This document shows positions 4,581 through 19,577 of a stretch of DNA of 19,577 nt, one piece after another. The stretch spans positions 1 to 19,577 of IMG/VR virus record IMGVR_UViG_2671180460_000010. One strand, written 5' to 3'. Source of the stretch: a virus (lineage: Duplodnaviria > Heunggongvirae > Uroviricota > Caudoviricetes). The notes below the pieces were generated by a model, which was not told where the DNA came from, made no database searches, and was given only the letters and a program-made list of their open reading frames with translations. Positions within the stretch are counted from its first letter, which is position 1; each line of letters begins with the position of its first letter. A program made the translations under genes and the position numbers.

Positions 4581-5081
4581 TATCGCGTCCTCAACAATGA
4601 ATTTTGTGATGCGGTGCCTGGTGCCTCCAGGTGACGTTAACCAGTTAACAATTAACGCCGGATACAGGGAACCCATAAACACCCGATACGGGGGAACTAA
4701 TCGCTTTTTAACTGTTCCGCGTGCGCTGAGCCGCATTCACCGCATCACAAAATTCACTTTAAAAATGGCGGACATCAGCCAGCAATTAAACTGATGCCGC
4801 CAAAGGTCAATACTCAACATGGGTTGTTGCAGCGGGGTTGTCACTCAGGCGTATGGTCAACCTGACAACCCGGTGCTACCAATGGGGGTAAGGATAACCC
4901 CGCCATACTTACCGCCGCGCCATTTCGCGGATTGCCACAACCGGAAGCGCACGGTCGAAGAAATCTAACGACAAGCCTTCTAAGGAAAAGAAACCTTCGC
5001 TGTGCGCTTTCGTGTTGTGTGCCTGCTTTTAACCACATCAGGCGAGGTGGTTTCCGTCATTCCCCAACGACAAGAAATTTG

Positions 5082-5087
5082 TATAAT
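5082..5087 (+). promoter_or_regulatory. Candidate sigma70 -10 element (TG-adjacent TATAAT) for the 5119..5637 gene
   Basis: ttTGTATAATcc lies 31 nt upstream of the ATG at 5119. The -35 is weak (ttcccc region), consistent with an extended -10 type promoter. Confidence 0.4.
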
Positions 5088-5118
5088 CCGGATACCCCAA
5101 CAACAAAGAGAGTTAAGA

Positions 5119-5637: not shown

Positions 5638-5799
5638 GTTATTGCTGTTGTGGATATCCAGATTGTTAAAGAGCATGCCGGAAGGTTATCCGTGTCCGGC
5701 GCACGACCACACGTAGCAGCGTGTTGGTCTCCATTTTTAATTCACCCCTTAATGGAGGATAAAATAATCGTGGTGCTGGTCGGCTCGGTCCCGCAGGTG

Positions 5800-6447
5800 T
5801 TACCCTTTAAACCAGTCAATCCAGAGCGGATAGTGTTCAGCATAAATATAGCTATACACATCCAGGTTGTATTTGCGGTCTGTCCTTAGCAGGTCGCAAA
5901 TACAGGCCGCAGCTTCCAGGGCAGCAGCTTTGTTGCTGAATAACCATGTAGCAACATTCCGGCGATTATCTGTATCCCACTCTTTTGTGAGGGCTGACAC
6001 CACGAAGGAGCCGTTGGTGTTGCCATCAAATACTTCCGTTTCCAGATTTTTAAGTAATGCCTGGTGAATTTTTGCCAGGTATTCAGTCGGAATTTCGCCA
6101 CGAATTCGGATAAGGTTGTCATAAACAAACATGTTCCCCGCATATGGCGATTTTTCTTTCTTTTGTTCACTGGCAGGCTGGTCAATTTCGTCTTCGGTTG
6201 GTTTCGTATTGATGTTTTGCGTTATCGTTTCTGCAATGGGCTTTGCTTTATTTTCTACACAATGATTGTTTGTGAACGAATCTGAATACAGTCCGGTAAA
6301 AGAATTGCGGACATGATTTGATAAATTTCTGATGAACACTTTATCTACTAATATCATTGGGTTCCGCGCCAGTTGCGAGCGAATCACATCAGCGGCCATT
6401 TCCTGTATTGAAATTGGTAAATCTTTAAATTCCATAGTCAACCTCAT
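5800..6447 (-). CDS. Hypothetical protein (215 aa), second gene of the leftward early operon
   Basis: Long ORF with GAGG RBS. Start is 6447 (MRLT) or 6435 (MEFKDL). No motif I can assign to a known family. Confidence 0.6.
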   Translation of the reverse strand: MRLTMEFKDLPISIQEMAADVIRSQLARNPMILVDKVFIRNLSNHVRNSFTGLYSDSFTNNHCVENKAKPIAETITQNINTKPTEDEIDQPASEQKKEKSPYAGNMFVYDNLIRIRGEIPTEYLAKIHQALLKNLETEVFDGNTNGSFVVSALTKEWDTDNRRNVATWLFSNKAAALEAAACICDLLRTDRKYNLDVYSYIYAEHYPLWIDWFKG

Positions 6448-6459
6448 CAGTCGGTGGTT

Positions 6460-6666
6460 TTAAATCACTCGCGAAACGTTTAATGCCGCGCTTTTTGCCA
6501 GAGCGGTAATATCCTGCGTCACTGACGCCAGTGTTTCAGAGAGGCGCTCTTTGTGATCAGTGGCCTGCTTCAGGTCATTAATGGCGCGTATCTTCCCGCG
6601 CATCCACTCATAAAGTTCATCATCGGTATAGCCTGGCGCGATGATGACGGGTTCTCGTTTCTGCAT
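6460..6666 (-). CDS. Hypothetical protein (68 aa), first gene downstream of the pL-like promoter
   Basis: ORF 12 nt upstream of the 215-aa gene on the same strand, about 180 nt downstream of a strong leftward promoter. Not Arg-rich, so not an obvious lambda N-type antiterminator. Confidence 0.5.
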   Translation of the reverse strand: MQKREPVIIAPGYTDDELYEWMRGKIRAINDLKQATDHKERLSETLASVTQDITALAKSAALNVSRVI

Positions 6667-6854
6667 GCTGATTCCTCTCAGTGCTGTTTCCCCTTAACGC
6701 CGGGGTAGCGGAACAAAAACCTGCTGCATAGTTAAAGTTGAACCCTGCCGTCATGTTCATACGCCTCGGGCTGGCTACTTAACCCCTGACCACTGCCTGG
6801 TAACTCGAAGTATTGCCCTGCGTTCTGTGGGATGGGGTGGGTTGGCATGGGAAA

Positions 6855-6898
6855 ACTATAGGTAATGCCTAATTATTTGTCAATAGGCTATGCCTAAT
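6855..6898 (-). promoter_or_regulatory. pL-like early-left promoter with overlapping operator half-sites (OL-like)
   Basis: On the minus strand: TTGACA (plus coords 6878..6883), 17-nt spacer, TATAGT (6855..6860). The -35 is embedded in ATTAGGCatagcctATT, and further GCCTAAT half-sites occur at about 6864..6876 and 6913..6925. Confidence 0.55.
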
Positions 6899-6991
6899 GA
6901 TTTAAGGGCAACCTAATAGGTGATGGTGTGTGGGAGAGGTAGTAGGAGTTAACTAACGGGATCTAGGAATTTCCCGTCGGACCATATAAGT

Positions 6992-7468
6992 TTAAGTACC
7001 TGTCTTGGTGATATTCTGGCTTTTCCGTTTTGATTCTTGATTTTTCAAATAGTTACCTACCTTCATTTCCATTGCGGCAATGTAGGCGCGAACGTCATGA
7101 TCAACCCAACTAGGCTCCGTAGCATTTCCAGATAAGAGGAAAGCTACAATTGCTCTTTTTTCATCAGAGGCGGCTTGATAAAGGCTGTTTATGTCTAAGA
7201 GTTCACTTTTTGTATCTGAAGTGGATGGGGTTGGTATGGGGTATTCGTTAAGCCCCCAATGCTCTGGACCAACCACATCAGAAAAGAAACGCCATAGTTC
7301 TGGAAGTTTGTCTTTACTTATCGAACCTTTCTTAATCCAGTCATGGATTGATGGTGGTTGGACTTTGAAATGACGTGCGATCTCCGCCTTTGATTTGACG
7401 GCCCCTGATGCAATTTTTTTGTTAATGGCCTGCTCTATCGCTCGGCCTAAGTCTTTACCACTAAGCAT
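6992..7468 (-). CDS. Prophage repressor, HTH (XRE-like) family, RacR-like; no C-terminal S24 peptidase domain evident
   Basis: 158-aa ORF with GGAGA RBS. N-terminal HTH-like segment (KSKAEIARHFKVQPPSIHDWIKKG). Sits between mirrored promoters/operators and is divergent from a Cro-like gene. Size and arrangement match the Rac racR-ydaS-ydaT layout. Confidence 0.7.
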   Translation of the reverse strand: MLSGKDLGRAIEQAINKKIASGAVKSKAEIARHFKVQPPSIHDWIKKGSISKDKLPELWRFFSDVVGPEHWGLNEYPIPTPSTSDTKSELLDINSLYQAASDEKRAIVAFLLSGNATEPSWVDHDVRAYIAAMEMKVGNYLKNQESKRKSQNITKTGT

Positions 7469-7520
7469 TGCTTAATAGTCTCCTATGCGTATCGCGTTAG
7501 GCAATCCCTATCTTTAATGT

Positions 7521-7570
7521 ATTAGGCATAGCCTATTGACAATGATATTAGGCGCAGCCTAATATCATTG
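7521..7570 (+). promoter_or_regulatory. pR-like early-right promoter with operator palindromes (OR-like)
   Basis: -35 TTGACA (7536..7541), 18-nt spacer, -10 TAATAT (7560..7565). A 31-bp perfect palindrome CAATGATATTAGGC-gca-GCCTAATATCATTG (7540..7570) overlaps the promoter. A second site ATTAGGCatagcctATTGACAA (7521..7542) is the exact reverse complement of 6877..6898. Confidence 0.6.
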
Positions 7571-7592
7571 TGTGTTTTTTGGAGTTCACTCG

Positions 7593-7916
7593 ATGAAAAA
7601 AGAGAACTATTCATTCAAACGAGCTTGTGCTGTTGTCGGTGGGCAATCAGCAATGGCTAGGCTTTTAGGTGTATCACCTCCAAGCGTAAATCAATGGATC
7701 AAAGGTGTACGTCAGTTACCTGCTGAGAGATGTCCTGCGATTGAACGAGCAACAAAAGGTGGTGTCCTGTGTGAAGAACTTCGTCCTGATGTTGATTGGT
7801 CATACTTACGACGCTCGTCATGTTATTCGCAGAATATGTCGATGAAGCAACCAAATGACGAAAACGATCATACCCGAAGCATCAAGAGGCAAATGATTCA
7901 TGAAAATCAAGCATGA
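7593..7916 (+). CDS. ydaS: Cro-like HTH regulator, YdaS family
   Basis: Start at ATG 7593 with GGAG RBS. HTH signature (ACAVVGGQSAMARLLGVSPPSVNQWIKGVRQLP). Divergent from the repressor, and its stop overlaps the start of the next gene. Confidence 0.8.
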   Translation: MKKENYSFKRACAVVGGQSAMARLLGVSPPSVNQWIKGVRQLPAERCPAIERATKGGVLCEELRPDVDWSYLRRSSCYSQNMSMKQPNDENDHTRSIKRQMIHENQA

Positions 7917-8325
7917 ACACATCCGCATGGCGATGAATGCCTGGGCACATCTGAACGGTGAAAAAGTTCCGGCTGCGAAAATTACCAAAGCGTATTTCGA
8001 ACTGGGTATGACGTTCCCGGAACTGTACGACGACAGCCATCCGGAAGCCCTGGGCCGTAACACCCAGAAAATTTTCCGCTGGGTGGAGAAAGACACTCCT
8101 GATGCGGTTAAAAAAATTCAGGCGTTGTTACCAGCGATCGAAAAAGCGATGCCGCCTCCGCTGGTGGCCCGAATGCGCAGCCACAGTTCCGCTTATTTTC
8201 GGGAGTTGGTAGAGACGAAGGAACGGCTGGTGAAAGATATTGATGATTTCGTTGCATCAGCGATCGTTCTGTTCGATCAGATGAATCGTGGTGGCCCGGC
8301 AGGAAACACTCTGGCTGTGCATTAA
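7900..8325 (+). CDS. ydaT: YdaT-family protein (CII-like / putative toxin of the debated YdaS-YdaT pair)
   Basis: 141-aa ORF starting MKIKHEHI, overlapping the YdaS-like gene by 17 nt. Same position as ydaT in Rac-type immunity regions. Confidence 0.7.
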   Translation: MKIKHEHIRMAMNAWAHLNGEKVPAAKITKAYFELGMTFPELYDDSHPEALGRNTQKIFRWVEKDTPDAVKKIQALLPAIEKAMPPPLVARMRSHSSAYFRELVETKERLVKDIDDFVASAIVLFDQMNRGGPAGNTLAVH

Positions 8326-8338
8326 TTGGGTAATAAAT

Positions 8339-8848
8339 ATGAGTAATGACAAAAAATTGACACTGAGCGTTTACGAAAACAGTCCGCACATCTGGCGTGG
8401 CGGTTTATCTGATGTGGAGCTGGCAGAGTGGTTGATACATAAAGCTAATGCGCTGCTCTGGCGTTTGTCAGCCAGAGAGCAGCGCAAGGAAACCAGAATA
8501 AAGCTGGCTGATGCAGAAGCGTGTGCCGGGCTTATTGAGGATTATACAAATCTTGGTATTTCTTCAGCAGAGAGTGATCCCATTCAGCCTCTGAGCAGGG
8601 AGTCAATCCAGCACGCTGGTTGTATGGCACATCTTGTAACTGCTCGTCAACATGAGGTGGGTATTGGATCACTTCCGGTGGGATATTCGCTGATTACAGA
8701 GCTGGTTGAAGCAAGAAAATCAGTTCAGAAAAAGAGAGATGACGCACTTCAATTATTGAGAGAGCACTATGGCGCGATACCAGAATGCGAACAGCGTCGA
8801 TACCCTGAAGGTTATGAATGGATGCAGTCTCTTTTTGAAGCTCGCTAA
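8339..8848 (+). CDS. Hypothetical protein (169 aa)
   Basis: ORF starting at internal Met (MSNDKKLTLSV) immediately after the YdaT-like gene, in the early-right operon. No assignable motif. Confidence 0.55.
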   Translation: MSNDKKLTLSVYENSPHIWRGGLSDVELAEWLIHKANALLWRLSAREQRKETRIKLADAEACAGLIEDYTNLGISSAESDPIQPLSRESIQHAGCMAHLVTARQHEVGIGSLPVGYSLITELVEARKSVQKKRDDALQLLREHYGAIPECEQRRYPEGYEWMQSLFEAR

Positions 8849-9065
8849 TCAATATGTCGAGACGAAGGTATGTTTCGGCGCGCAGCCAGGCTCTGTAATC
8901 CGGGAGCATTTCGGGGCTGTTACACCAGCGGTTTGTTGCTGCAACATTTAATACGTGAGCCTGATAAAGGCTTTTCAAAAAATACATGTCGAACCTCCTC
9001 TGGTTCTGTCGATTGGGAACCACAGATTATATCCGGAGGAAGGTTCGGCACCAGATGAGGTAGCC

Positions 9066-10175
9066 ATGCGTGATTACGCAAAAGTTTCTCCGCGATTCTG
9101 GCTGGGAGAAACGGGGAGAGAACTTAGAAAGGCGGGTGCAGAAGCGCAAGTTGTTGCTTTTTACCTGATGACATCCCCTCACGCAAATATGCTGGGTTTG
9201 TATTACCTGCCAGTTTTATACCTTGCTCATGAAACCGGGCTTGGTCTGGAAGGGGCTTCAAAGGGGCTTAAAAGGGCTGTTGAAGCTGGTTTTTGTAGCT
9301 ATGACCATGATGCCGAGATGGTCTGGGTCCATGAAATGGCAGCCTGGCAGGTTGGGGAAACGTTGAAGCCTGGCGATAACCGTTGTGCAGGTGTCAGGAA
9401 TGAGTATGCATCATTACCTGAAAACGCTTTTCTGTCAGCGTTTTACGACAGATATAAAACGGATTTCCATCTGGATGTGAGGCGGAATAATAGCCGAAAT
9501 TCGGTAAGGGGCTTCGAAGGGGCTTTTAAGGGGCTTCGAAGCCAAGAACAGGAGCAGGAGAAAGAACAGGAACAGGACAAAAACACTATAGCTCATGGCG
9601 AAAAAAACACCACGAACCAGGCAGGGGATGTTCAGACCGTAAATTCTGGTCAGCCAGCAGGCACGACACCGGAAGCCGATTCGGCGTATGCGCTGAAAGC
9701 CGATTCGGGCGCTGTGCAGCAGGTGATGACCGCAGGGTCGGAGCAATCACACCAACTGCAGCAGCCTGAAGCCGATTCCGCCATTCAGCGGGAAGCCGAT
9801 CGGGTAGTCCCGGAAAACACCGGGCGGCCTGTGGGACGAGTGGATTATCCGGATGTGTTCGAACAGGTCTGGCGGGAATACCCGTTGCGTGCCGGGGCAA
9901 ACCCGAAGAAATCCGCATTCAGTGCCTGGAAGGCCAGATTGCGCGAGGGGGTGCCACCAGAGACCATGCTGGATGGTGTGAGGCGTTACGCGAGATACCT
10001 GGCGGCGACCGGGAAAGCGGGAACGGAATTTGTTCAGCGAGCGACGACGTTTTTTGGACCGGACCGGAATTTTGAAAACCCCTGGTTGCTCCCGGTAAGC
10101 GGCACGAACAACCAGCGTTGCGTGAATCACATTTCTGAACCGGATACCGAAATTCCGCCGGGGTTCAGGGGGTAA
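9066..10175 (+). CDS. Replication initiation protein (lambda O-like / replisome organiser) with internal iterons
   Basis: Long ORF directly upstream of a DnaC-like gene with a 6-nt gap. ATG at 9066 has a GAGG RBS; an in-frame GTG at 8955 is an alternative start. The coding sequence contains two clusters of 11-bp-phased AAGGGGCTT repeats and an A-rich tract, as in lambdoid O genes that contain ori. Confidence 0.6.
   Translation: MRDYAKVSPRFWLGETGRELRKAGAEAQVVAFYLMTSPHANMLGLYYLPVLYLAHETGLGLEGASKGLKRAVEAGFCSYDHDAEMVWVHEMAAWQVGETLKPGDNRCAGVRNEYASLPENAFLSAFYDRYKTDFHLDVRRNNSRNSVRGFEGAFKGLRSQEQEQEKEQEQDKNTIAHGEKNTTNQAGDVQTVNSGQPAGTTPEADSAYALKADSGAVQQVMTAGSEQSHQLQQPEADSAIQREADRVVPENTGRPVGRVDYPDVFEQVWREYPLRAGANPKKSAFSAWKARLREGVPPETMLDGVRRYARYLAATGKAGTEFVQRATTFFGPDRNFENPWLLPVSGTNNQRCVNHISEPDTEIPPGFRG
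9250..9620. repeat. Putative replication origin: iteron clusters (AAGGGGCTT x3 at 9250..9279 and x3 at 9506..9540, 11-bp phasing) plus A-rich tract (9545..9620)
   Basis: Direct reading. Repeats start at 9250, 9261 and roughly 9271, and at 9506, 9517 and 9528. They are followed by caggagcaggagaaagaacaggaacaggacaaaaacac...aaaaaaacacc. Confidence 0.4.
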
Positions 10176-10181
10176 CGGGTT

Positions 10182-10928
10182 ATGAAAAATATTGCGGCAG
10201 GTGGTGTTCTTGAACGCATCCGTAAGCTGGCCCCGCAGCATGTAACCGCGCCGTACCGGACAGTGGACGAGTGGCGAGAGTGGCAGCTTGCAGAAGGGCG
10301 AAAGCGTAGTGAGGAAATTAACCGCCAGAATCGCCAGATCCGGGTGGAGAAAATTATGAAGCGTTCCGGTATCCAACTGTTGCACCAGAAGTGTTCGTTT
10401 GCGAATTACCAGGTGAAGAACGACGGGCAACGATACGCGTTGAGCCAGGCGAAATCTATCGCCGATGAACTGATGACCGGATGCACAAATTTCGTGTTCA
10501 GCGGTAAGCCGGGTACCGGAAAGAACCACCTTGCAGCTGCCATTGGTAATCATCTTCTGACGAAAGGTCACAGCGTGATAGTGATAACGGTGGCAGATGT
10601 GATGCTGGCGTTACACGGCAGCTACGACAACAAGAACTCGGGCGAAAAATTTTTGCAGGGGTTGTGTGACGTCGATCTGCTGGTTCTGGATGAAATTGGT
10701 ATGCAGCGGGATACGCGCAATGAGCAGGTTACGCTGAACCAGATAGTCGATCGCAGAACGGCCTCGATGCGTAGTGTCGGAATGCTGACAAATCTGAACC
10801 ACACGGCAATGAGCGCCCTTTTAGGCGAACGGGTGATGGACCGCATGACCATGAACGGTGGTCGCTGGGTGAATTTTAACTGGGAGAGCTGGCGTTCAAA
10901 TGTCAGCCATTTAAGGGTTGTGAAGTAA
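10182..10928 (+). CDS. DnaC-like replicative helicase loader (IstB-like AAA+ ATPase)
   Basis: Walker A (FSGKPGTGKNHLAAA) and Walker B (LLVLDEIG) motifs. Tightly follows the O-like gene. 248 aa. Confidence 0.9.
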   Translation: MKNIAAGGVLERIRKLAPQHVTAPYRTVDEWREWQLAEGRKRSEEINRQNRQIRVEKIMKRSGIQLLHQKCSFANYQVKNDGQRYALSQAKSIADELMTGCTNFVFSGKPGTGKNHLAAAIGNHLLTKGHSVIVITVADVMLALHGSYDNKNSGEKFLQGLCDVDLLVLDEIGMQRDTRNEQVTLNQIVDRRTASMRSVGMLTNLNHTAMSALLGERVMDRMTMNGGRWVNFNWESWRSNVSHLRVVK

Positions 10929-10942
10929 TTTCAGGAGGACTC

Positions 10943-11335
10943 ATGGCAAGCGTTTTTACACCCGAACAGCGGGAAGAACTGAAGGCACGAATTATCGGGC
11001 TGATACACAGGAACAAACGCATGACGATGTCGCAACTGGAGAGGGAAACGGGGGCGGGCTGGCATACGGTCAGACGTTGTCTTGTGGATGTGGTTGCTTG
11101 TGGTGATTTGTACATATCCGGTAAACACGGTGTTTTTGTATCAGAACAGGCGTATCAGGCGTGGTGTAAAACTCCGAAGAAAGCTGACCCGGCACTGGTC
11201 CGGAAGTTACCTGATGGTGAAATCCGTCGCTACGACAGAGACATGAACATAATTTGCCGGGAATGCCGTAACAGCGAATCAATGCAACGTGTACTGGCGT
11301 TCTATCGGGGTAATTTTCAGGAGGTGATGGAGTGA
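10943..11335 (+). CDS. Hypothetical protein with N-terminal winged-helix-like segment (130 aa)
   Basis: ORF with AGGAGG RBS (tttcaggaggactcATG). Possible HTH at MSQLERETGAGWHTVRRCL. Its stop overlaps the next gene's start (GTGA). Confidence 0.6.
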   Translation: MASVFTPEQREELKARIIGLIHRNKRMTMSQLERETGAGWHTVRRCLVDVVACGDLYISGKHGVFVSEQAYQAWCKTPKKADPALVRKLPDGEIRRYDRDMNIICRECRNSESMQRVLAFYRGNFQEVME

Positions 11336-11628
11336 GGGCGAGGGTTTATATCGCCGGTCCAATGACGGGCTATGAAAATTTCAACCGTGAAGCATTTCAC
11401 AGGGCGGAAGAGGAACTGAAACGGGAAGGGCATACCGTCTTAAACCCGGCAGTACTTCCGGACGGACTGACTCAGTCGCAGTACATGGATATCTGCATGG
11501 CGATGATACGTTGCGTGGATGCGATTTACATGCTGAATGGCTGGCAGCGGTCGGCGGGTGCCAGGGCAGAACTGGCGCTGGCGGAGAAGCTGGGGCATGC
11601 AGTTATTTTCCAGGAGGAGGTACAGTGA
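11332..11628 (+). CDS. DUF4406-like protein (nucleoside 2-deoxyribosyltransferase-like fold)
   Basis: GTG start with AGGAGG RBS 8 nt upstream. N-terminal VYIAGPMTG motif typical of this family. 98 aa. Confidence 0.65.
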   Translation: MRARVYIAGPMTGYENFNREAFHRAEEELKREGHTVLNPAVLPDGLTQSQYMDICMAMIRCVDAIYMLNGWQRSAGARAELALAEKLGHAVIFQEEVQ

Positions 11629-11909
11629 ATATCGACGCAACAATGACGATTGGTACGGCCCTCAATACGGGGCTGGCGCTTCTTGGTTGGTGCTACGTCA
11701 TGTTCTGCTCATGGCGGTGGCTGTCACTGATGTTACTGAAAAAATGGAATAAACGCTGTAAACAGACGCAGCGGCAGAAGGCAATGAATGCGTTTGTTGA
11801 GACCTTCGATATTGACAGTATGGAACCAGGAGAGCCAGCTCGCGTGATTAGCAGAGGTGACGTTGTAATTCTTGTATACCGGAGTGAAGAGAAAAATGAG
11901 CGAAATTAA
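11625..11909 (+). CDS. Small hypothetical membrane protein (94 aa)
   Basis: GTG start overlapping the upstream stop (GTGA), with AGGAGGAGG RBS. One strongly hydrophobic segment (TIGTALNTGLALLGWCYVMFCSWRWLSLMLL). An alternative ATG start lies at 11640. Confidence 0.45.
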   Translation: MNIDATMTIGTALNTGLALLGWCYVMFCSWRWLSLMLLKKWNKRCKQTQRQKAMNAFVETFDIDSMEPGEPARVISRGDVVILVYRSEEKNERN

Positions 11910-12052
11910 CTATCAGGCACTGCGTGAAGAAGAGAAAGCATAATCCAAATCTGAATAATTAAATTCAGCACTGTAAATAAAACTTAATCCTTAACCGGAG
12001 GGATTTCTGCACCCTCAGAACATCAGGAGGCCGCCCGAAAGGGTGGTAATGA

Positions 12053-12271
12053 ATGGTCACATTATTTAGAAAAAAATATCCGCGAAGGAGTAGAACAACA
12101 GAATTTTTGTTTCTCATTCTGTTTATCGTATTGATGATACCGATATCCCCGCTAATTTTTGTCTGGGCAATCGGGAAAATAATTGAGCCAGTTATTGAAT
12201 TGTATAACGACGTGGTGTGGGCGTCGTTCAACACACTGCACAATAAAATTAATCCGTATAAGGAAAGCTGA
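12053..12271 (+). CDS. Small hypothetical membrane protein (72 aa) in AT-rich segment
   Basis: ORF with GGTGG-type RBS. Hydrophobic core (FLFLILFIVLMIPISPLIFVWAIG). Its stop lies 1 nt before the HNH gene start. Confidence 0.35.
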   Translation: MVTLFRKKYPRRSRTTEFLFLILFIVLMIPISPLIFVWAIGKIIEPVIELYNDVVWASFNTLHNKINPYKES

Positions 12272-12272
12272 T

Positions 12273-12638
12273 ATGGCACTGACGAAAAAACAACGTGCAG
12301 AGCTGCGCATGAAGTTCGGCGGTCGCTGTGCTTATTGCGGCTGCGAACTTGGCGAAAAGTGGCATGCAGACCATGTAAAACCGGTCATTCGTTTTGATGG
12401 AAATATGCTTCACCAGGAACGTGACGATATATCCAACATGGTTCCGGCATGCCACCCATGCAATCTGCACAAGCATTGCAGTAGTCTGGAAGATTATCGG
12501 CGAATTATCAGTGATGGTCGTCGTGAATTCCTTGCGTCCGGGAAAGGCAAAGCGCTGGTTCGTATGGGATTGGTTGAAATGAAATCTGACCCGGTTGTGT
12601 TCTGGTTTGAAAAATATCAAGAAGGGGCTACGGCATGA
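12273..12638 (+). CDS. HNH endonuclease
   Basis: Start at ATG 12273 with AAGGAAAG RBS. Cys/His HNH pattern: CAYCGC...WHADHVKP...NMVPACHPCNLHK. Confidence 0.8.
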   Translation: MALTKKQRAELRMKFGGRCAYCGCELGEKWHADHVKPVIRFDGNMLHQERDDISNMVPACHPCNLHKHCSSLEDYRRIISDGRREFLASGKGKALVRMGLVEMKSDPVVFWFEKYQEGATA

Positions 12639-13033
12639 CCACTTTTACCAATAGCAAACTAACAGACGAATACGTTTCAAATGCAACGTTGATTCGGCTC
12701 ATTCTGTGGGCTGACCAGCACAATAGCCATTATGTTGTAGCGGCTCTGCGCGAGCTACAGGAGCGCCGCAAGGCTGATAGTGTGTCTGTAGAAATCAACG
12801 ACGACATGGCTTACGCATTCCATCATGCACTGTCAGACTCATCTCCAGGTGCTGATGAGGTAGAGGAAATTAAGGCCGGGTTGCGTGCTGCCTTTGCCAA
12901 TGTCACTGTCCAGCCGGTGCTGATAGTGCCGGATGAAATGGATTTGCTTACCTGCCATCTCGACGGTGTAACTGAAACATATGCTGATGGCTGGAACGCC
13001 TGCCGCGCCACCATGCTTAAGGGAGATAAATAA
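12635..13033 (+). CDS. Hypothetical protein (132 aa)
   Basis: ORF in the operon, overlapping the HNH stop by 4 nt. No assignable motif. Confidence 0.55.
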   Translation: MTTFTNSKLTDEYVSNATLIRLILWADQHNSHYVVAALRELQERRKADSVSVEINDDMAYAFHHALSDSSPGADEVEEIKAGLRAAFANVTVQPVLIVPDEMDLLTCHLDGVTETYADGWNACRATMLKGDK

Positions 13034-13617
13034 TGATTAATCGAACCAAACTGGAACACATTCTCGAATATGCCAGGCAGCAGAAATGTATTGGGCAACT
13101 TTGTAAAATTCCACCAGGAGATATGGTTGAAATCGTGGAAATGGCCATGCGTAAGGCTGGCAACTCTCCGGTAACTCCGGCTCGCCTGCCTGGCGGTTTC
13201 ACCATTGAGGATGCGAAGGAGTTACATGAAGACCTGGTACGCAGCCACATAAGCCAGGCTTTAAGTTGTGAGAGGATGAAAAAGAACGATCGCGATGCTG
13301 ATTTGCGCTGGATTCATGGCGTTATAGTTCAGGCCGCGTGGTTTGTAAAAGCGTCACTGGAGCAGAATGCGCTAACGGGCAACTCTCCGGTAACACCGGC
13401 TGACTGGATAAGCTGTAGTGAGCGAATGCCTGAAAAGAACCAGAACGTGCTTATTTCGGTGAATTTCGATAGCTCTCTGGTTGAACCGCTAATATGCTCC
13501 GCACGCTATACAGGAAGCACATTCCGGCGAGGAGAAGCAACGATTAAGCCGGGTAATGGTATTGAGCAGGCAACTCACTGGATGCCGCTACCGGAGCCAC
13601 CGCAGGAGGTGAACTGA
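13033..13617 (+). CDS. DUF551-like phage protein with internal GNSPVTPA repeat
   Basis: C-terminal HWMPLPEPP motif characteristic of DUF551. A 24-nt near-exact direct repeat within the gene encodes GNSPVTPA twice. Confidence 0.65.
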   Translation: MINRTKLEHILEYARQQKCIGQLCKIPPGDMVEIVEMAMRKAGNSPVTPARLPGGFTIEDAKELHEDLVRSHISQALSCERMKKNDRDADLRWIHGVIVQAAWFVKASLEQNALTGNSPVTPADWISCSERMPEKNQNVLISVNFDSSLVEPLICSARYTGSTFRRGEATIKPGNGIEQATHWMPLPEPPQEVN

Positions 13618-14012
13618 TGAAAAATGAAGTCGACAATGTTATCACCCTTGTACAGCCAAAATCAGAGGAGGAAGGACTCCTCAACGTTGTGATAACCGAC
13701 AGAAAAAGCGTCGAGCAAAAATGCTGTCAGCATTTCCGTACAACAATTTCAGAAGTGAATCGTACGATTACCTGCAAACGGTGTGGATTGGCTTTAGATC
13801 CGTTTGAACTTGTTCTCGACCGTGCGAGAAACGGTGAAAACATCGTGTCAGAGATTAAATCACTCTATACAAAGCGGGATGCTCTTCGTGAAGCTGTGGC
13901 AAAACTTGAACGTGAAGAGAAAAACGCCAAAGCGCGGTTACGAGCAGTCAGGACAGCAATACTGTATGCGGAAAATGACCTTAAAAATATTGAGCAGGAG
14001 GTGAATCGATGA
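13617..14012 (+). CDS. Hypothetical protein with Cys-rich N-terminal half and coiled-coil-like C-terminus (131 aa)
   Basis: ORF with ATGA overlap to the upstream gene. KCCQHF...TCKRCG motif; Lys/Glu/Arg-rich C-terminal helix. Confidence 0.55.
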   Translation: MKNEVDNVITLVQPKSEEEGLLNVVITDRKSVEQKCCQHFRTTISEVNRTITCKRCGLALDPFELVLDRARNGENIVSEIKSLYTKRDALREAVAKLEREEKNAKARLRAVRTAILYAENDLKNIEQEVNR

Positions 14013-14086
14013 CCGAAGCATTCACAACGGCAGGAATTGCGATGGCGGTGGCGCTGGTGGTGTATTCGATTTGCCGCTGGGGATAA
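14009..14086 (+). CDS. Possible 25-aa hydrophobic peptide (MTEAFTTAGIAMAVALVVYSICRWG)
   Basis: ATGA-coupled to the upstream gene, AGGAGG 6 to 7 nt upstream, and followed immediately by a terminator. Too short for confident calling. Confidence 0.3.
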   Translation: MTEAFTTAGIAMAVALVVYSICRWG

Positions 14087-14092
14087 CAAACA

Positions 14093-14122
14093 AAAACCCC
14101 GGATTGACGGTCCGGGGTTTTT
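14093..14122 (+). terminator. Rho-independent terminator ending the nin-like operon
   Basis: CCCCGGA-ttgacgg-TCCGGGG stem-loop followed by TTTTT. Confidence 0.7.
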
Positions 14123-14344
14123 GAAGGAAACAAACAGAAACAACAATTGCCGTTATCTGTTGCCACCAATGACAAGTAAACGTATCTCAGGCGAGCGCAT
14201 TGCGCCGTTCTGACGCGGATACATTAGCCTGGGCAGAAGGTTCTGGCAATAAAAAATAGCGTTTTCTTATCGGTGTCGGTAAGATTGTTGCGGGTGCTTG
14301 AGGCTGTCTGCCTCGGGCATGCCACTGTAAGGCAGACAGAGAAA

Positions 14345-14447
14345 AGCCCCAGTTAACATCACGCGTCCTGCAAGACGCTTAACATTAATCTGAGGCTCAA
14401 TCCATGCTGAACACATGTAGGTTAGCCTCTTACGTGCCGAAAGGCAA
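14345..14447 (-). ncRNA. Putative Sok-like antisense RNA and its promoter (type I antitoxin)
   Basis: Minus-strand promoter: -35 TTGCCT (plus coords 14442..14447), 17-nt spacer, -10 TAACCT (14419..14424). The architecture mirrors the R1 sok promoter, which sits antisense to the hok leader. The 3' end is not defined. Confidence 0.35.
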
Positions 14448-14460
14448 GGAGAAGCAGGCT

Positions 14461-14616
14461 ATGAAGCAGCAAAAGGCGATGTTAATCGCCCTGATCGTCA
14501 TCTGTTTAACCGTCATAGTGACGGCACTGGTAACGAGGAAAGACCTCTGCGAGGTACGAATCCGAACCGGCCAGACGGAGGTCGCTGTCTTCACAGCTTA
14601 CGAATCTGAGGAGTAA
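14461..14616 (+). CDS. hok: Hok/Gef-family type I toxin (51 aa)
   Basis: MKQQKAMLIALIVICLTVIVTALVTRKDLCEVRIRTGQTEVAVFTAYESEE is a near-match to the Hok/Gef family (HokD/RelF-like). The leader GGTGCTTGAGGCTGTCTGCC...AAGGAGAAG parallels the hok mRNA fold-back elements. The in-frame upstream extension from 14404 may correspond to a mok-like translational coupling frame. Confidence 0.85.
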   Translation: MKQQKAMLIALIVICLTVIVTALVTRKDLCEVRIRTGQTEVAVFTAYESEE

Positions 14617-14687
14617 GAGACCTGGCGGGGGGATTTTTATCCCCCGCCACCTCTGATGTGTCAGGCATCCTCAACGCACCCGCACTT

Positions 14688-14710
14688 AACCCGCTTCGGC
14701 GGGTTTTTTC
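14688..14710 (+). terminator. Rho-independent terminator at the 3' end of the hok transcript
   Basis: CCCGC-ttcg-GCGGG followed by TTTTTT. A GGCGGGGGGA/TCCCCCGCC hairpin precedes it at 14624..14648. Confidence 0.7.
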
Positions 14711-14746
14711 ACGTACTGTGGTTGTGAATACGATTGGTATTAGGCT

Positions 14747-14765
14747 ATGCTAACAACATTAGCAT
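14747..14765. promoter_or_regulatory. Operator-like perfect inverted repeat ATGCTAA-caaca-TTAGCAT upstream of the antitoxin/Doc pair
   Basis: Direct reading; lies about 60 nt upstream of the small ORF at 14828, near TTGTGA/TATGCT and TTGACT promoter-like hexamers. Confidence 0.4.
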
Positions 14766-14827
14766 GACTAATTTTGTATTGACTTAATTTTTGTTAAAGA
14801 ACAGGACGGAGAAGTAAGGGTACACCA

Positions 14828-15007
14828 ATGAGCTACGCACTAAAAAAACACCCGCGATTGACTATTCCCCCTCGCGATAAAAGCGTTGTGGCAGATCCGC
14901 GCCCGGCTATCGATGAAAATTGTACTCATCGTGAGCAGGTGAAAAATGCTTTCGATTTCGGTTTTTCTCGTTACGAGAAGGCAATGGAAGATCTTTCAAA
15001 AGTGTAA
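14828..15007 (+). CDS. Small protein upstream of Doc-family toxin; putative cognate antitoxin (59 aa)
   Basis: Short ORF (below the ORF-track cutoff) with AAGGG RBS, ending 18 nt before the Doc-like gene. Typical antitoxin-toxin gene order. No family assignment possible from sequence alone. Confidence 0.45.
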   Translation: MSYALKKHPRLTIPPRDKSVVADPRPAIDENCTHREQVKNAFDFGFSRYEKAMEDLSKV

Positions 15008-15025
15008 TGATAGGTATTGTGCTCT

Positions 15026-15511
15026 ATGGCTGAGATTGTTGAAGGAGTGCACTACCTCTCGGTTGATGATCTTACTGAAATCAATCGCCTTTTAATTGAG
15101 CTTCAAACACCAGATGAACCTGTTGGTGTGCTGAGTGTTGATAATTTAAGTTCTTCTCAGTCTCGTCCCAGTATGGTTCGATGGTATGAGCAAACCAACG
15201 ACATGTTTGTACTGGCATCGGTATTGATTGAAAGTCTGATTCAGAATCATCCATTTGCCAATGCAAACAAGCGCACAGCAATGATGGCTGGTGCGGTTTT
15301 TTTATTGTTAAATGGATACGAATTAACCGCGCCAGGCGATGAAGTTGTGGAGATGGCTGAGGGGCTGGCCTGTAAAATTTATACACGAGAAGAGCTTGAA
15401 AATTGGTTGTGTTATTGGTCTCGTGCGTATGACAGTCGGGAATTATGTAAAACAGGCGCAACTATTGTTTTGTATGAAACGATCAAGCTTAAAATAGAAC
15501 AGCAAAACTAA
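15026..15511 (+). CDS. doc: Doc/Fic-family toxin (death-on-curing-like)
   Basis: Motif HPFANANKRTAMMAGAVFLLLNGY matches the Doc signature HxFx(D/N)ANKR. An alternative TTG start lies at 15017. Confidence 0.8.
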   Translation: MAEIVEGVHYLSVDDLTEINRLLIELQTPDEPVGVLSVDNLSSSQSRPSMVRWYEQTNDMFVLASVLIESLIQNHPFANANKRTAMMAGAVFLLLNGYELTAPGDEVVEMAEGLACKIYTREELENWLCYWSRAYDSRELCKTGATIVLYETIKLKIEQQN

Positions 15512-15525
15512 AGATGCTTCTAATG

Positions 15526-15555
15526 AAAACCCGCTTTGGCGGGTTTTGTTTTTTC
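15526..15555 (+). terminator. Rho-independent terminator after the Doc-like gene
   Basis: AAAACCCGC-tttg-GCGGGTTTT followed by GTTTTTTC. Confidence 0.75.
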
Positions 15556-15626
15556 TGCGTATTCTGGTTTACAATTTGCACGCCAGCCTGAACAACTGGC
15601 ACCTGCTGCGCCAGCAGAGAAAACCG

Positions 15627-15899
15627 ATGGCGCACAATACCAAACCACACAATTCTGATACCGTCTTTGCCAGCAGGCGCGGACGGCATTCGCACATATT
15701 TAAAGCTGACTGGTACCAGCATGATCCATGCACTGAAGAACAGGCCGAATGGCTGATTCAGAACTACCGCAGACGCGGATACGAGATTAAGAAAGCCCTC
15801 AGCCTCGATTATCGTCACTGGATAATCTACGTCAGGCTGCCGTACTCCGAGCGCCCACCGCGTCCGTCCCGTACATTCCAGCAACGCATCTGGAGGTAA
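15627..15899 (+). CDS. Hypothetical protein (90 aa), basic
   Basis: Internal Met start (MAHNTKPHN) chosen because the upstream part of the ORF overlaps the terminator. Weak RBS. Precedes the YdfU-like gene; its stop is 1 nt before the GTG of that gene. Confidence 0.4.
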   Translation: MAHNTKPHNSDTVFASRRGRHSHIFKADWYQHDPCTEEQAEWLIQNYRRRGYEIKKALSLDYRHWIIYVRLPYSERPPRPSRTFQQRIWR

Positions 15900-15900
15900 C

Positions 15901-16947
15901 GTGCGGGTATTACTTCGACCTGTTCCGGTACCGGAACTTGGGCTGGTGGTGCTAAAGCCGGGCCGTGAATCCATGCAGGTATTTCATAACCCTCGAGTGC
16001 TGGTGGAGCCGGAACCGAAAAGCATGCGTGGTCTGCCGTCCGGAGTTGTTCCTGCCGTTCGCCAGCCGCTGGCGGAAGATAAATCATTACTGCCATTTTT
16101 CAGCGATGAGCGGGTGATTCATGCTGCTGGCGGCGCTGGTGCACTGTCTGACTGGTTGTTGCGTCATGTCAAATCCTGCCAGTGGCCTCATGGTGATTAC
16201 CATCACAGCGAAACCGTCATACATCGTTACGGCACCGGCGCGATGGTGTTGTGCTGGCACTGCGACAACCAGCTGCGTGACCAGACATCCGAATCACTTG
16301 AGCAACTTGCTCAACAAAACCTGACAGCATGGATGATTGACGTCATCCGTCACGCAATAAGCGGTGCGCAGGAGCGTGAATTATCGCTGGCTGAATTATC
16401 CTGGTGGGCTGTCTGCAATCAGGTGGCGGACGCACTACCGGAGGTAGTATTACGTCGTTCTCTGGGGTTACGTGCGGAAAAAATCCGCTCGGTGTACCGC
16501 GAAAGCGACATCATTCCGGGAGAGCAGGCAGCCGCCAGCATACTGAAGCAGCGCACAAAAAATCTTGCGCCGCTGCCTCACGCCCACCAGCAAAACCCAC
16601 AACAGGAAAAGACGGTGGTCAGCATTGCCGTTGATCCGGACGCTCCGGAATCTTTCATGAAACGACCTAAACGTCGCCGCTGGGTGAATGAGAAATACAC
16701 GCGCTGGGTAAAGACACAGCCGTGTACGTGTTGTGGTAAGCCAGCCGACGATCCCCATCACCTGATTGGTCATGGTCAGGGCGGAATGGGGACAAAAGCC
16801 CACGATATTTTTACGTTGCCGCTGTGCCGGGAACATCACAATGAACTTCATGCAGATCCGCAGGCGTTCGAAGAAAAGCATGGTTCTCAGGTTGATTTAA
16901 TTTTTCGTTTTCTTGATCACGCCTTTGCAACTGGCGTACTCGGATAA
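15901..16947 (+). CDS. YdfU-like prophage protein (DUF968-like C-terminal Cys/His domain)
   Basis: GTG start with GGAGG RBS 6 nt upstream. C-terminal CTCCGKPADDPHHLIGHGQGGMGTKAHDIFTLPLCREHHNELH. Position upstream of rusA and Q parallels Qin-type prophages. Confidence 0.65.
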   Translation: MRVLLRPVPVPELGLVVLKPGRESMQVFHNPRVLVEPEPKSMRGLPSGVVPAVRQPLAEDKSLLPFFSDERVIHAAGGAGALSDWLLRHVKSCQWPHGDYHHSETVIHRYGTGAMVLCWHCDNQLRDQTSESLEQLAQQNLTAWMIDVIRHAISGAQERELSLAELSWWAVCNQVADALPEVVLRRSLGLRAEKIRSVYRESDIIPGEQAAASILKQRTKNLAPLPHAHQQNPQQEKTVVSIAVDPDAPESFMKRPKRRRWVNEKYTRWVKTQPCTCCGKPADDPHHLIGHGQGGMGTKAHDIFTLPLCREHHNELHADPQAFEEKHGSQVDLIFRFLDHAFATGVLG

Positions 16948-16959
16948 AAGAGGTTACTG

Positions 16960-17319
16960 ATGCGTATAGAGTTTGTTTTGCCTTACCCGCCGACGGTGAA
17001 CACTTACTGGCGACGTCGTGGCAGCACATATTTTATATCGGAAGCCGGTAAGCGTTATCGCCGTGATGTGGCACTTATTGTTCGCCAGCAGCGGCTGAAA
17101 TTAAACCTGTCCGGAAGGCTGGCGATAACGGTTATCGCAGAGCCGCCGGATAAACGCCGTCGTGACCTGGACAATATCCTGAAAGCACCGCTGGATGCGT
17201 TGACGCATGCGGGACTGCTTATCGACGACGAGCAGTTTGATGAAATCAATATTGCGCGCGGTCAGGTCGTTCCCGGTGGGCGGCTGGGCGTGAAGATTTA
17301 CAAAATTGAAAGTGAGTGA
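16960..17319 (+). CDS. rusA: Holliday junction resolvase RusA
   Basis: 119 aa with AGAGG RBS. Characteristic LPYPPTVNTYWRRRG and DKRRRDLDNILKAPLDAL motifs (catalytic Asp cluster). Confidence 0.85.
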   Translation: MRIEFVLPYPPTVNTYWRRRGSTYFISEAGKRYRRDVALIVRQQRLKLNLSGRLAITVIAEPPDKRRRDLDNILKAPLDALTHAGLLIDDEQFDEINIARGQVVPGGRLGVKIYKIESE

Positions 17320-17870
17320 GCGTAAATATGATATACCCGGAAATTACAGGCAAAAGCGGTGAGCATTTACGCCTGAAAACGCTGGAAAGTGTCTGGCTCC
17401 AGGGGAAACTGCGTATGTGGGGGCGTTGGTCGTATATAGGTGGTGGCAAAACAGGAAATATGTTCAATCAGTTGCTGGCATCCAAAAAACTGACAAAAAC
17501 CGCGATCAATGAAGCCATGCGCAAAATCAGGGAATCAGGGATTGATAAACCTGAACTGGAAGCATTCTTGCGAGAGATGATCGCTGGCAGACAGAAGAGC
17601 TGGCTGTCTCACTGTACTGATGCAGAGGCGTTACGCATTGATGGGGTGATAAGTAAAGCGCTCGCAAGTTATCCTGGATTGATTGATATCCTGCGGCAAC
17701 GGTACGAAGGGCGGGGGATGAGTAAACGAAAAATGGCTGAATTGTTGAATGAGGTTCACCCTGAGTGGTGCTATGCAACATGCCGCAATCGTATAGATAT
17801 GTGGCTGAGAATAGCTGAGTTTATTCTATATCCACTGATGCGAGATGCATTTTCTTTTACTGACGCTTAG
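17316..17870 (+). CDS. Putative late-gene antiterminator (Q-like) by position
   Basis: 184-aa ORF directly after rusA (GTGA overlap; alternative ATG at 17328) and directly before a promoter-plus-terminator unit resembling PR'/tR'. Family assignment is not confirmed by motif. Confidence 0.45.
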   Translation: MSVNMIYPEITGKSGEHLRLKTLESVWLQGKLRMWGRWSYIGGGKTGNMFNQLLASKKLTKTAINEAMRKIRESGIDKPELEAFLREMIAGRQKSWLSHCTDAEALRIDGVISKALASYPGLIDILRQRYEGRGMSKRKMAELLNEVHPEWCYATCRNRIDMWLRIAEFILYPLMRDAFSFTDA

Positions 17871-17947
17871 AGTCTGGAGGGCGTTTGTTGTTGTACGAAG
17901 CGGATTTCTGGTTGGTGGCAAGGCTTATGCAGTTTTTAGAAAAAAGC

Positions 17948-17976
17948 TTGTATTTTTAGCCATAAACTGTTTTAAT
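17948..17976 (+). promoter_or_regulatory. PR'-like late promoter candidate
   Basis: TTGTAT (17948..17953), 17-nt spacer, TTTAAT (17971..17976), about 60 nt upstream of a strong terminator. Confidence 0.35.
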
Positions 17977-18035
17977 CCAGCTAAGCTTCGCAAAGCTGTA
18001 CCGCTAGGCGAATAGCAGACATGGACATTTGAAAG

Positions 18036-18060
18036 AGCCCGCTTTATGCGGGTTTTTTTA
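18036..18060 (+). terminator. Rho-independent terminator (tR'-like) downstream of the Q-like gene
   Basis: AGCCCGC-tttat-GCGGG followed by TTTTTTT. Confidence 0.75.
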
Positions 18061-18182
18061 TGCCTGAAAAACGGTACAGGACGTTAAACGCGCTGATGGT
18101 TGCGAATACCGGTCTTTCAGCTTGCTGGCTTTTTCGACAAGAGCTATTGGTATGTCACGTTAACCAGAAAAGGAAAAAAGAC

Positions 18183-18380
18183 ATGCTAAAACAGCAGGAT
18201 ATGACCGAAACTGCCAGAGTGGTGTTTAATGAATTAAGCGTCACCGAACCGGCGACCGTCGGGGAAATTGCGCAGAATACTTACCTTTCACGCGAACGCT
18301 GCCAGTTAATACTGACCCAGCTTGTTATGGCGGGTCTGGCAGATTATCAGTTCGGTTGTTACAGACGCCTTCCGCAGTGA
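18183..18380 (+). CDS. Small hypothetical protein, possible winged-helix DNA-binding (66 aa)
   Basis: Internal Met start (MLKQQDMTETAR) with AAAGGAAAA RBS, chosen because the upstream part of the ORF overlaps the terminator. Segment TVGEIAQNTYLSRERCQLILTQLVMAGL resembles a recognition helix context. Confidence 0.4.
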   Translation: MLKQQDMTETARVVFNELSVTEPATVGEIAQNTYLSRERCQLILTQLVMAGLADYQFGCYRRLPQ

Positions 18381-18530
18381 AGGCTTTTTAATTTGTGGTA
18401 ATGGGCGGCTGGTGGGTGTTAGCGGCACCTGCCAGCCATCTGCTCATGCGTTGGGGTCACAAGCAAACCTCAGGCCCATCTGCTTTGCGCAAAAGCGGTA
18501 TGAGCCTATCAGAGAAGTGCTTATTGATCT

Positions 18531-19577
18531 ATGGCTAATACTGTAAAAATATCCAGTTGTGAGTTAATCAACGCTGATTGCCTGGAATTTATCCGGACCT
18601 TACCGGAAAACTCCGTCGATCTGATAGTCACAGACCCGCCATACTTTAAAGTGAAGCCCGAGGGCTGGGATAACCAGTGGAAGGGCGACGCTGATTACCT
18701 GCAATGGCTGGACCAGTGTCTTGCGCAGTTCTGGCGGGTATTAAAACCCGCCGGAAGTCTTTACCTGTTCTGTGGTCATCGCCTGGCATCTGATACCGAA
18801 ATCATGATGCGTGAACGCTTTAATGTACTGAACCACATTATCTGGGCGAAGCCGTCCGGACGCTGGAACGGGTGCAACAAGGAAAGCCTGCGGGCGTATT
18901 TCCCGGCAACAGAGCGCATTCTGTTTGCTGAACATTACCAGGGGCCATACCAGCCCAAAAATGACGGTTATGCAGCAAAGGGGCGCGAGCTTAAGCAACA
19001 CGTCATGGCACCGATGATTTCTTACTTTCGTGATGCGCGGGAATCACTGGGGATAACGTCGAAACAGATAGCGGAAGCCACCGGAAAGAAAAACATGGTT
19101 TCGCACTGGTTTGGTACCAGTCAGTGGCAGTTACCGAATGAGGCCGATTACAGTAAACTGCAGGCGCTGTTTGCACGTGTGGCGGCAGAAAAACACCAGC
19201 GCGGTGAACTGGAGCAGCCACACCACCAGCTGGTCAGCACATACAGCGAACTGAACCGGCAATATGTCAGCCTGCTGGAGGAATACAAATCACTGCGGCG
19301 TTATTTTTCCGTATCGGCTGTCGTTCCTTATACGGATGTCTGGACGCACAAGCCCGTGCAGTATTATCCGGGCAAACATCCCTGTGAAAAACCGGCGGAT
19401 ATGTTGCGTCAGATAATTACTGCCAGCAGCCGTCCAGGCGATTTGGTCGCAGATTTTTTTATGGGGTCAGGTTCCACGATAAAAGCGGCACTGTTGCTGG
19501 GACGCAGGGCGATTGGCGTGGAACTGGAAGAGGAACGTTTTAATCAGACGGTCAGAGAAATAACGAAAGATTTTTAA
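18531..19577 (+). CDS. DNA methyltransferase, N6-adenine/N4-cytosine (DPPY) type, beta-class motif order
   Basis: Motif IV DPPY near the N-terminus (DLIVTDPPYF) and motif I FxGxGxT near the C-terminus (DFFMGSGST). Complete 348-aa ORF ending at the window edge. Confidence 0.9.
   Translation: MANTVKISSCELINADCLEFIRTLPENSVDLIVTDPPYFKVKPEGWDNQWKGDADYLQWLDQCLAQFWRVLKPAGSLYLFCGHRLASDTEIMMRERFNVLNHIIWAKPSGRWNGCNKESLRAYFPATERILFAEHYQGPYQPKNDGYAAKGRELKQHVMAPMISYFRDARESLGITSKQIAEATGKKNMVSHWFGTSQWQLPNEADYSKLQALFARVAAEKHQRGELEQPHHQLVSTYSELNRQYVSLLEEYKSLRRYFSVSAVVPYTDVWTHKPVQYYPGKHPCEKPADMLRQIITASSRPGDLVADFFMGSGSTIKAALLLGRRAIGVELEEERFNQTVREITKDF

Follow-up and report, generated by a model that had tools for sequence, protein, structure and literature searches.

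Which protein restrains a Doc-family toxin whose immediate upstream neighbour resembles none of the known antitoxins? The question is raised by a two-gene cassette in a 19,577-nucleotide (nt) stretch of Caudoviricetes DNA, positions 1 to 19,577 of the IMG/VR record IMGVR_UViG_2671180460_000010 (the whole of this stretch is referred to below as the window), which spans the left-hand half of a lambdoid, Rac-like prophage of Escherichia coli-like type. The second gene of the cassette encodes a Doc-family toxin of 161 amino acids (aa) and the first a 59-aa protein that RefSeq lists as a 'hypothetical protein' while annotating the toxin itself. An earlier note, made from the DNA letters alone, had suggested that the two might form a toxin-antitoxin (TA) module in which Doc is paired with a non-canonical antitoxin. 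Our analysis supports this suggestion, and the strict co-occurrence of the two genes together with their joint decay leads us to predict that the 59-aa protein is very probably the cognate antitoxin of Doc.

The argument for a cognate pair begins with its distribution. In a genome survey with one representative genome per species, covering the genera Providencia, Serratia, Morganella, Yersinia, Rosenbergiella, Xenorhabdus, Hafnia, Kluyvera and Proteus, the small open reading frame (ORF) lies directly upstream of this Doc subfamily at 13 of 14 loci. At the fourteenth, in Providencia stuartii NCTC11800 (L014, 2814-3490), both genes have decayed to pseudogenes: the antitoxin gene carries a frameshift and an internal stop, and the toxin gene reads HPVANANKR at its catalytic motif, has lost other invariant residues and contains premature stops. 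With the small protein as bait, 80 viral loci were recovered from IMG/VR, 79 of which extend far enough to be assessed, and at every one of these 79 an intact Doc ORF with an intact catalytic motif starts 3-10 nt after the stop of the small ORF. In the window the Doc ATG follows the first stop of the small ORF after 18 nt, in the same reading frame, compared with the gap of 3-10 nt found elsewhere. The pair ranges from Escherichia to Pseudomonas phages and also occupies quite different slots: in a Salmonella siphovirus it lies among the tail genes, in a Pantoea myovirus between those for tail and baseplate, and in the Pseudomonas phages Sirocco and LPPA56 at the integrase-proximal or genome end. 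More distant relatives of this Doc, in Firmicutes, are partnered by AbrB-type or Phd-type proteins. Among complete E. coli genomes, 120 of 5426 (~2%) contain the full module at up to 98.9% identity, and the copies that we fetched include O104:H4, O157:H7, O121:H19 and APEC O1 strains. A small partner gene immediately upstream, on the same strand, tightly spaced and conserved as a pair is the layout of type II TA modules, and a conserved operon of a small gene with a known toxin is a strong predictor of an antitoxin (Makarova et al., PMC2701414).

The small ORF has the marks of translation and selection. It is preceded by a Shine-Dalgarno sequence, AAGGG at 14816-20, located 7 nt 5' of its ATG, and closes with three successive in-frame stops, TAA TGA TAG (15005-15013). 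Among 42 distinct DNA sequences of homologues, pairs differ on average by 0.22/0.14/0.51 at codon positions 1/2/3, and the ratio of non-synonymous to synonymous substitution rates (dN/dS) is 0.05-0.09 where dS is unsaturated, which points to purifying selection; this codon-position pattern and the low dN/dS identify the small ORF as a real coding gene. The strongest constraint falls on the C-terminal half (last 26 codons). The only match of the encoded protein is to PHROG 2208 (function unknown; E=2e-41, residues 1-59 on positions 1-59 of the 59-position profile). No Pfam, NCBIfam or PADLOC family was matched at E<=1, and profile searches of PDB with alignments of the small protein returned no antitoxin and nothing above noise (ribosomal protein S25, E=0.32; TLE1, E=1). 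The family comprises 14 clusters in an index of 5.8 billion proteins, and HMMER, run exhaustively on 1.84 billion proteins, yielded 34 representatives, all of 44-95 aa except for one repetitive protein of 1274 aa that is probably spurious, and none with a known DNA-binding domain. Two conserved segments define the family, R-L-x-I-P-x-R-D-K at the N-terminus and x-V-x-N-A-F-x-x-x-F-x-R-Y-E-x-A-x-E-x-L-S-K-V at the C-terminus. In an AlphaFold2 model of the monomer, which leaves room for folding induced on dimerisation, residues 1-33 are coil (predicted local distance difference test score, pLDDT, 58-68) and residues 34-57 form a helix (pLDDT 74-81). The first 33 residues are proline-rich and predicted to be disordered, and the helix is predicted to be amphipathic, with a hydrophobic moment of 1.18 compared with 0.53+-0.27 in shuffled sequences (p=0.016). 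We found no papers mentioning WP_000119355 and none on the death-on-curing family together with lambdoid phages, and the NetFlax supplements do not list the accessions of the module; the small-protein family is unnamed and uncharacterised in the literature.

The toxin is assigned with less difficulty. TIGR01550 (DOC_P1) matches residues 11-130 of the 161-aa protein with 120.7 bits (cut-off 38.65; E=3.8e-35), Pfam Fic/DOC (PF02661) matches with 45.3 bits (cut-off 24; E=1.6e-11) and phrog_577, 'Doc-like toxin', with E=1.1e-48, while the nearest solved structure is that of Enterococcus faecalis Doc (9vzc_A, E=6.4e-14, ~110 residues aligned). AMPylating Fic proteins carry a glycine where the Doc motif has a lysine. 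The Doc motif is HxFx(D/N)(A/G)NKR (PMC13034048), and the HPFANANKR of the toxin conforms to it, lysine included, as the earlier note had read from the letters as HxFxxANKR. Across 27 members of the subfamily H75, F77, N79, N81, K82 and R83 are invariant. Judged on these matches, the 161-aa protein is a Doc-family toxin with an intact catalytic motif; the assignment is drawn from sequence matches because the structural model, described below, is too poor to add to it. Beyond the end of the TIGR01550 match lies a C-terminal extension that is specific to the subfamily, in which W127, L128, W131, R133, D136, L140 and C141 (15404-15448) are invariant in the same 27 sequences and the last ~20 residues are variable. 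As a separate observation, this extension may go together with the conserved IPxRDK motif at the N-terminus of the small protein.

How, then, might the module work? We picture it as a two-gene type II TA cassette, a piece of cargo (a 'moron') that sits in the prophage's nin region directly after hok/sok and whose genes would be co-transcribed and are probably translationally coupled. Our preferred reading, to which we assign a probability of roughly 75%, is that the small protein neutralises Doc through its helix as the Phd-C element does, that free Doc phosphorylates EF-Tu, and that the module serves to stabilise the prophage or to abort infections by other phages. The activity of the toxin, phosphorylation of EF-Tu leading to a stop in translation and growth arrest, is proposed by homology. 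The amphipathic helix 34-57 of the antitoxin, probably kinked, would lie in the Doc groove like Phd-C or the Enterococcus Phd, and the protein would act without a folded DNA-binding domain; its N-terminal R-L-x-I-P-x-R-D-K tail could contact the toxin's C-terminal extension, serve as a minimal DNA-binding arm, or be a protease tag or degron. Several observations weigh against this picture as a whole. The AlphaFold2 model of the toxin, built with 27 close homologues, contains helices only and has low confidence (mean pLDDT 52.4), so that the fold is not confirmed structurally, and the likeness of the small protein's helix to Phd-C is not significant (hhalign probability 0.9%, P=0.063). With regard to regulation, the perfect 7-N5-7 symmetry of the palindrome upstream of the small gene (Table 1) hinges on A14764, a base private to this copy, a scan of the + strand for sigma-70 promoters found none around the dyad or anywhere in the window, and the antitoxin has a strongly conserved N-terminus whereas the dyads upstream vary from lineage to lineage, which argues against a simple single-operator model.

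Table 1. Positions of the Doc cassette, its candidate control elements and its boundaries (window coordinates, except in the last row, where those of the individual records are given)
Feature	Position	Strand	Details
Upstream intrinsic terminator	14688-14709	+	3' end of the hok/sok unit and left cassette edge; stem AACCCGC/GCGGGTT, T run; -11.8 kcal/mol, z -3.0 against shuffles
Cassette segment	14709-15605	+	897 bp; homology to mEp460 and PPompW (blastn) runs up to 14708 and again from 15606-15610
Possible -10 region TGGTATTAGGCT	14735-14746	+	low confidence
Dyad, candidate operator	14747-14765	.	ATGCTAA (14747-53)-CAACA-TTAGCAT (14759-65), perfect in this copy
12-mer TATTGACTTAAT	14777-14788	+	contains -35-like TTGACT (14779-84); heads Providencia/Morganella promoters
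Predicted antitoxin	14828-15007	+	59 aa; PHROG 2208; RefSeq 'hypothetical protein', WP_000119355-like
Doc-family toxin	15026-15511	+	161 aa from RefSeq's ATG; alternative TTG at 15017
Catalytic motif codons	15248-15274	+	H75-P-F-A-N-A-N-K-R83 (HPFANANKR), direct reading
Toxin C-terminal extension	15404-15508	+	residues 127-161; past the end of the TIGR01550 match; subfamily-specific
Downstream intrinsic terminator	15526-15556	+	GC-rich hairpin, T run; -14.3 kcal/mol, z -4.7 against shuffles
Pair in other prophage slots	L107 3811-4495; L110 3817-4501; L113 1501-2181; L114 1501-2175

The alternative that survives best concerns this palindrome, which the earlier note had proposed as an autoregulatory operator. 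A perfect dyad does lie where it was placed, but the dependence on A14764 and the want of a promoter leave room for the view that it arose by chance or is neutral, the cassette being expressed constitutively, by read-through or under control from elsewhere, and we put this only a little short of an even bet. The probability that a 119-nt region of the same composition contains at least one dyad with arms of at least 7 and a loop of at most 12 is ~0.09; the window as a whole contains 32 such dyads compared with ~13.5 expected. Position 14764 is C or T in all six other E. coli genome copies fetched (T in the O121-type) and in each of the 22 inspected IMG/VR copies that share this upstream type, which reduces the symmetry to 5-N5-5, and the conserved part of the dyad consists of a core, GCTAA-N5-TTAGC, plus an outer ATTAG...CTAAT. 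Moreover, the O121-type variant (AGGATA...TAGCTT) breaks both flanking dyads with no compensatory change, and neither cassette protein has a recognisable DNA-binding domain (Pfam and NCBIfam for both, AlphaFold2 for the small protein).

Against chance stand comparisons across the family. Perfect dyads with arms of at least 7 occur in 10 of 24 distinct upstream lineages, compared with 2.8+-1.6 in shuffled sequences, and only 1 of 300 shuffles reaches 10. A clear promoter, TTGACT-17-CATTAT, precedes the small ORF by ~97 to 60 nt in the Providencia and Morganella copies (L004, L005, L008 and L013), and there a palindrome fills the promoter spacer, with both arms changing symmetrically between species, from TAATGTAA/TTACATTA to TAATGAAA/TTTCATTA and with TAATGAAAG/CTTTCATTA as a further pair of arms. 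The 12-mer TATTGACTTAAT is common to L004, L005 and L008, and L002 and L013 read TGTTGACTTAAT in its place; in the window the TTGACT at 14779 has, by direct reading, no -10 partner 16-18 nt downstream. By eye, GGTATTAR recurs in ~10 other upstream lineages 15-18 nt 3' of TTGnnC, TTGACC or TTGATA, and the conserved TGGTATTAG at 14735 likewise shows no matching -35 in this copy. Of 28 upstream lineages, 5 (L003, L006, L078, L080 and L082) have a second dyad type, CAAC-N5-GTTG, overlapping the -35 hexamer, compared with 0.08 expected, a pattern that was picked after looking; it lies 100-130 nt upstream of the small ORF, its right arm being the -35 hexamer (TTGATT, TTGACC or TTGAAG), and it is not present in the copy in the window, where the conserved core GCTAA-N5-TTAGC shares its N5 geometry. 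It is plausible that a dimeric DNA-binding factor acts on the promoters of the family, and the cassette brings just two proteins. We consider the odds that the dyad acts as an operator family-wide to be about even, and those for the exact 7-N5-7 element of this copy to be lower. A leader-RNA reading of the palindrome was set aside, as the predicted fold of 14745-14840 is no better than that of shuffled sequences (z -0.59) and no Rfam family reaches its gathering score there.

A second alternative is that the small protein is a truncated canonical Doc antitoxin of the Phd/YefM or AbrB/MazE type, which has kept the neutralising helix and lost the DNA-binding domain. The nearest relatives of the toxin outside its subfamily, in Enterococcus (34-39% identity), are paired with AbrB-type antitoxins. 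R-L-T-I-P in the small protein also loosely recalls what we take to be the R-V-V-I-P strand of AbrB/SpoVT, although the Pfam scan gave no match. A further hint comes from hhalign, which with the family profile aligned only the last 26 residues with the AbrB-type Enterococcus Phd, placing H34..L56 of the small protein in register on H56..L78 of an Enterococcus Phd homologue (L016). This stretch of L016 belongs to its C-terminal region and corresponds to residues 52-79 of EFPhd, the Doc-binding segment that is resolved as a bent helix in the groove of EFDoc (PMC13034048). However, this is the same alignment whose score was insignificant, and that with P1 Phd extends over 9 residues, is out of register and is likewise not significant (probability 1.1%, P=0.046). 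Furthermore, neither PhdYeFM nor MazE/AbrB is matched in Pfam at E<=1, and the 34 representatives, apart from the one probably spurious protein, are all short and have no known DNA-binding domain. We therefore regard truncation as improbable. The observation in the earlier note that the small ORF does not look like Phd holds in the profile searches against antitoxin families, none of which was matched.

Comparison with characterised systems helps to place the module. Like P1 Phd-Doc, it is a prophage-borne two-gene operon with a small upstream partner, for which a long C-terminal helix is predicted, and a Fic/Doc toxin with the HxFx(D/N)(A/G)NKR motif. It differs in that the partner has no detectable similarity to Phd, with 33 disordered residues in place of the Phd/YefM DNA-binding domain, and in the toxin, which matches P1 Doc weakly (E=1.8e-4, residues 53-115) and, at ~35 residues longer, has a conserved extension that P1 Doc lacks. 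Closest among solved structures on the side of the toxin is E. faecalis Phd-Doc (PDB 9VZC), which has the N-type motif HCFYNANKR and whose antitoxin binds Doc through a bent C-terminal helix of ~26 residues (PMC13034048). The last 26 residues of the 59-aa protein align in register with the equivalent region of L016, at the insignificant score given above; EFPhd, however, binds a single palindromic operator through its AbrB/SpoVT-like beta domain at the N-terminus, whereas the 59-aa protein has no folded N-terminal DNA-binding domain, just 33 residues of predicted coil before the helix. A conceptual parallel is offered by PanA_Phd-C:Doc of Corynebacterium doosanense (NetFlax), in which a short linear helical element suffices against Doc and the remainder of the antitoxin can be swapped or left out; with SUMO as its only fusion partner the Phd-C element neutralises a Doc toxin, and antitoxins of a single domain are known (PMC10440598). 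In that system the element is fused to a Panacea domain, whereas the helix of the 59-aa protein stands nearly alone behind its conserved IPxRDK tail, and the likeness remains conceptual; a functional analogy to the Phd-C neutralising element is nonetheless the natural reading of the 59-aa protein. YhfG-Fic shares the arrangement of a small enterobacterial protein (55-59 aa) encoded upstream of a Fic/Doc-fold protein, but YhfG partners an AMPylating Fic and not a Doc-type NKR enzyme, and hhalign detected no similarity between the small protein and YhfG (DUF2559; probability 0.1%). The Fic inhibitory motif (S/T)xxxE(G/N) has no conserved occurrence in the alignment of the 59-aa family.

A bolder version of the antitoxin assignment would make PHROG 2208 a distinct minimal class of Doc antitoxins of gammaproteobacterial prophages, neutralising through the helix and having no folded DNA-binding domain, in which the R-L-x-I-P-x-R-D-K segment clamps the extension of the toxin or, with two copies joined on a Doc dimer, reads N5-spaced dyads (CAAC-N5-GTTG elsewhere, CTAA-N5-TTAG here); we consider this full proposal rather unlikely. 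Least probable of all is that the pair is no TA module, the Doc-like enzyme being an accessory phage kinase that modifies a host or phage target and does not kill, and the small protein acting as regulator, cofactor or specificity subunit and not as inhibitor. In favour of this, every copy of the pair lies in a prophage, no PADLOC defence family matches above noise and the conserved C-terminal segment of the toxin is not found in P1 Doc. Against it, the catalytic motif is of the Doc type with an invariant lysine in NKR, gene order, size, tight spacing and joint decay follow the type II TA pattern, and the nearest relatives to have been characterised, P1 Doc and E. faecalis Doc, are both toxins that a partner encoded upstream neutralises.

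The cassette as a unit of exchange can be delimited by comparison with the phages mEp460 and PPompW (L025 and L026), in which a rem segment (~2570-3000 of these records) sits at the position of the cassette; the cassette is a replacement of the rem segment and not a simple insertion. Both terminators that flank it are intrinsic hairpins followed by a T run, of which a consensus terminator scanner flagged the downstream one and not the upstream one, and they are near-copies of each other. Moreover, 15528-15553 aligns at 92.6% (27 columns) with the hok terminator of mEp460 and PPompW. These similarities are consistent with, and suggest, exchange of the cassette by recombination at short shared terminator sequences. 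In the collection of deposited phages, no record contains the module at the DNA level at a coverage of at least 80%. Like the morons of lambdoid phages, the cassette is terminator-flanked and lies between conserved genes of the nin region, and it is also present in unrelated slots of other prophages; it differs in that the dedicated promoter, which is part of the classical definition, was not found by the scan of this copy. The description of the module in the earlier note as a terminator-bracketed, independently expressed cargo unit thus stands for the terminators and boundaries and falls short on the promoter.

If the antitoxin assignment is true, a widespread prophage TA cassette would become fully annotated; the cassette is present not only in E. 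coli but also in many other Enterobacterales and some Pseudomonas phages, and throughout these the toxin carries an annotation while its partner is listed as a 'hypothetical protein'. The assignment would also add a partner type for Doc together with a very small natural neutralising element that has almost nothing attached to it. Such a module would be useful for the study of Doc inhibition, of regulation without a classical DNA-binding domain and of the protection of lysogens against other phages. The gain is a modest one in annotation and not a new kind of system, and the toxin is an ordinary one. The swapping of antitoxin partners in type II TA modules is well documented (PMC10440598; PMC2701414), so that a specialist would not be very surprised and the general picture of TA systems is unchanged. 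The main upside would lie in the N-terminal tail as a regulatory or clamping element: should it prove to be an autoregulatory element that needs no domain, this would be an unusual form of autoregulation for a TA module.

The surroundings of the cassette follow the order integrase, Exo VIII-like protein, YdaT-domain protein, DnaC-like replication protein, DUF551 protein, hok/sok, small gene and Doc, a 90-aa ORF, DUF968 protein, RusA and a Q-like antiterminator. The type I hok/sok unit (14292-14616) lies directly upstream of the Doc cassette, which places two types of TA system side by side; sok matches its Rfam family at 14292-14466 (114 bits, E=1.1e-26) and the Hok ORF at 14461-14616 matches PF01848 (E=1.2e-23). 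In the Rfam scan of the Doc module no family reached its gathering score, sok in the neighbouring unit being the only one to do so. Between the cassette and the DUF968 gene, the 90-aa ORF (15627-15899, + strand) has no match in Pfam or NCBIfam, and related E. coli prophages encode a hypothetical protein at this place. In an 818-aa protein encoded at 1658-4114 (- strand), the N-terminal segment is of the Exonuc_VIII (RecE) type (PF06630, E=4.8e-29) and the C-terminal domain is an Rv2179c-like 3'-5' exoribonuclease (PF16473, E=4.4e-68), a domain combination that may be unusual for a gene at the RecE position.

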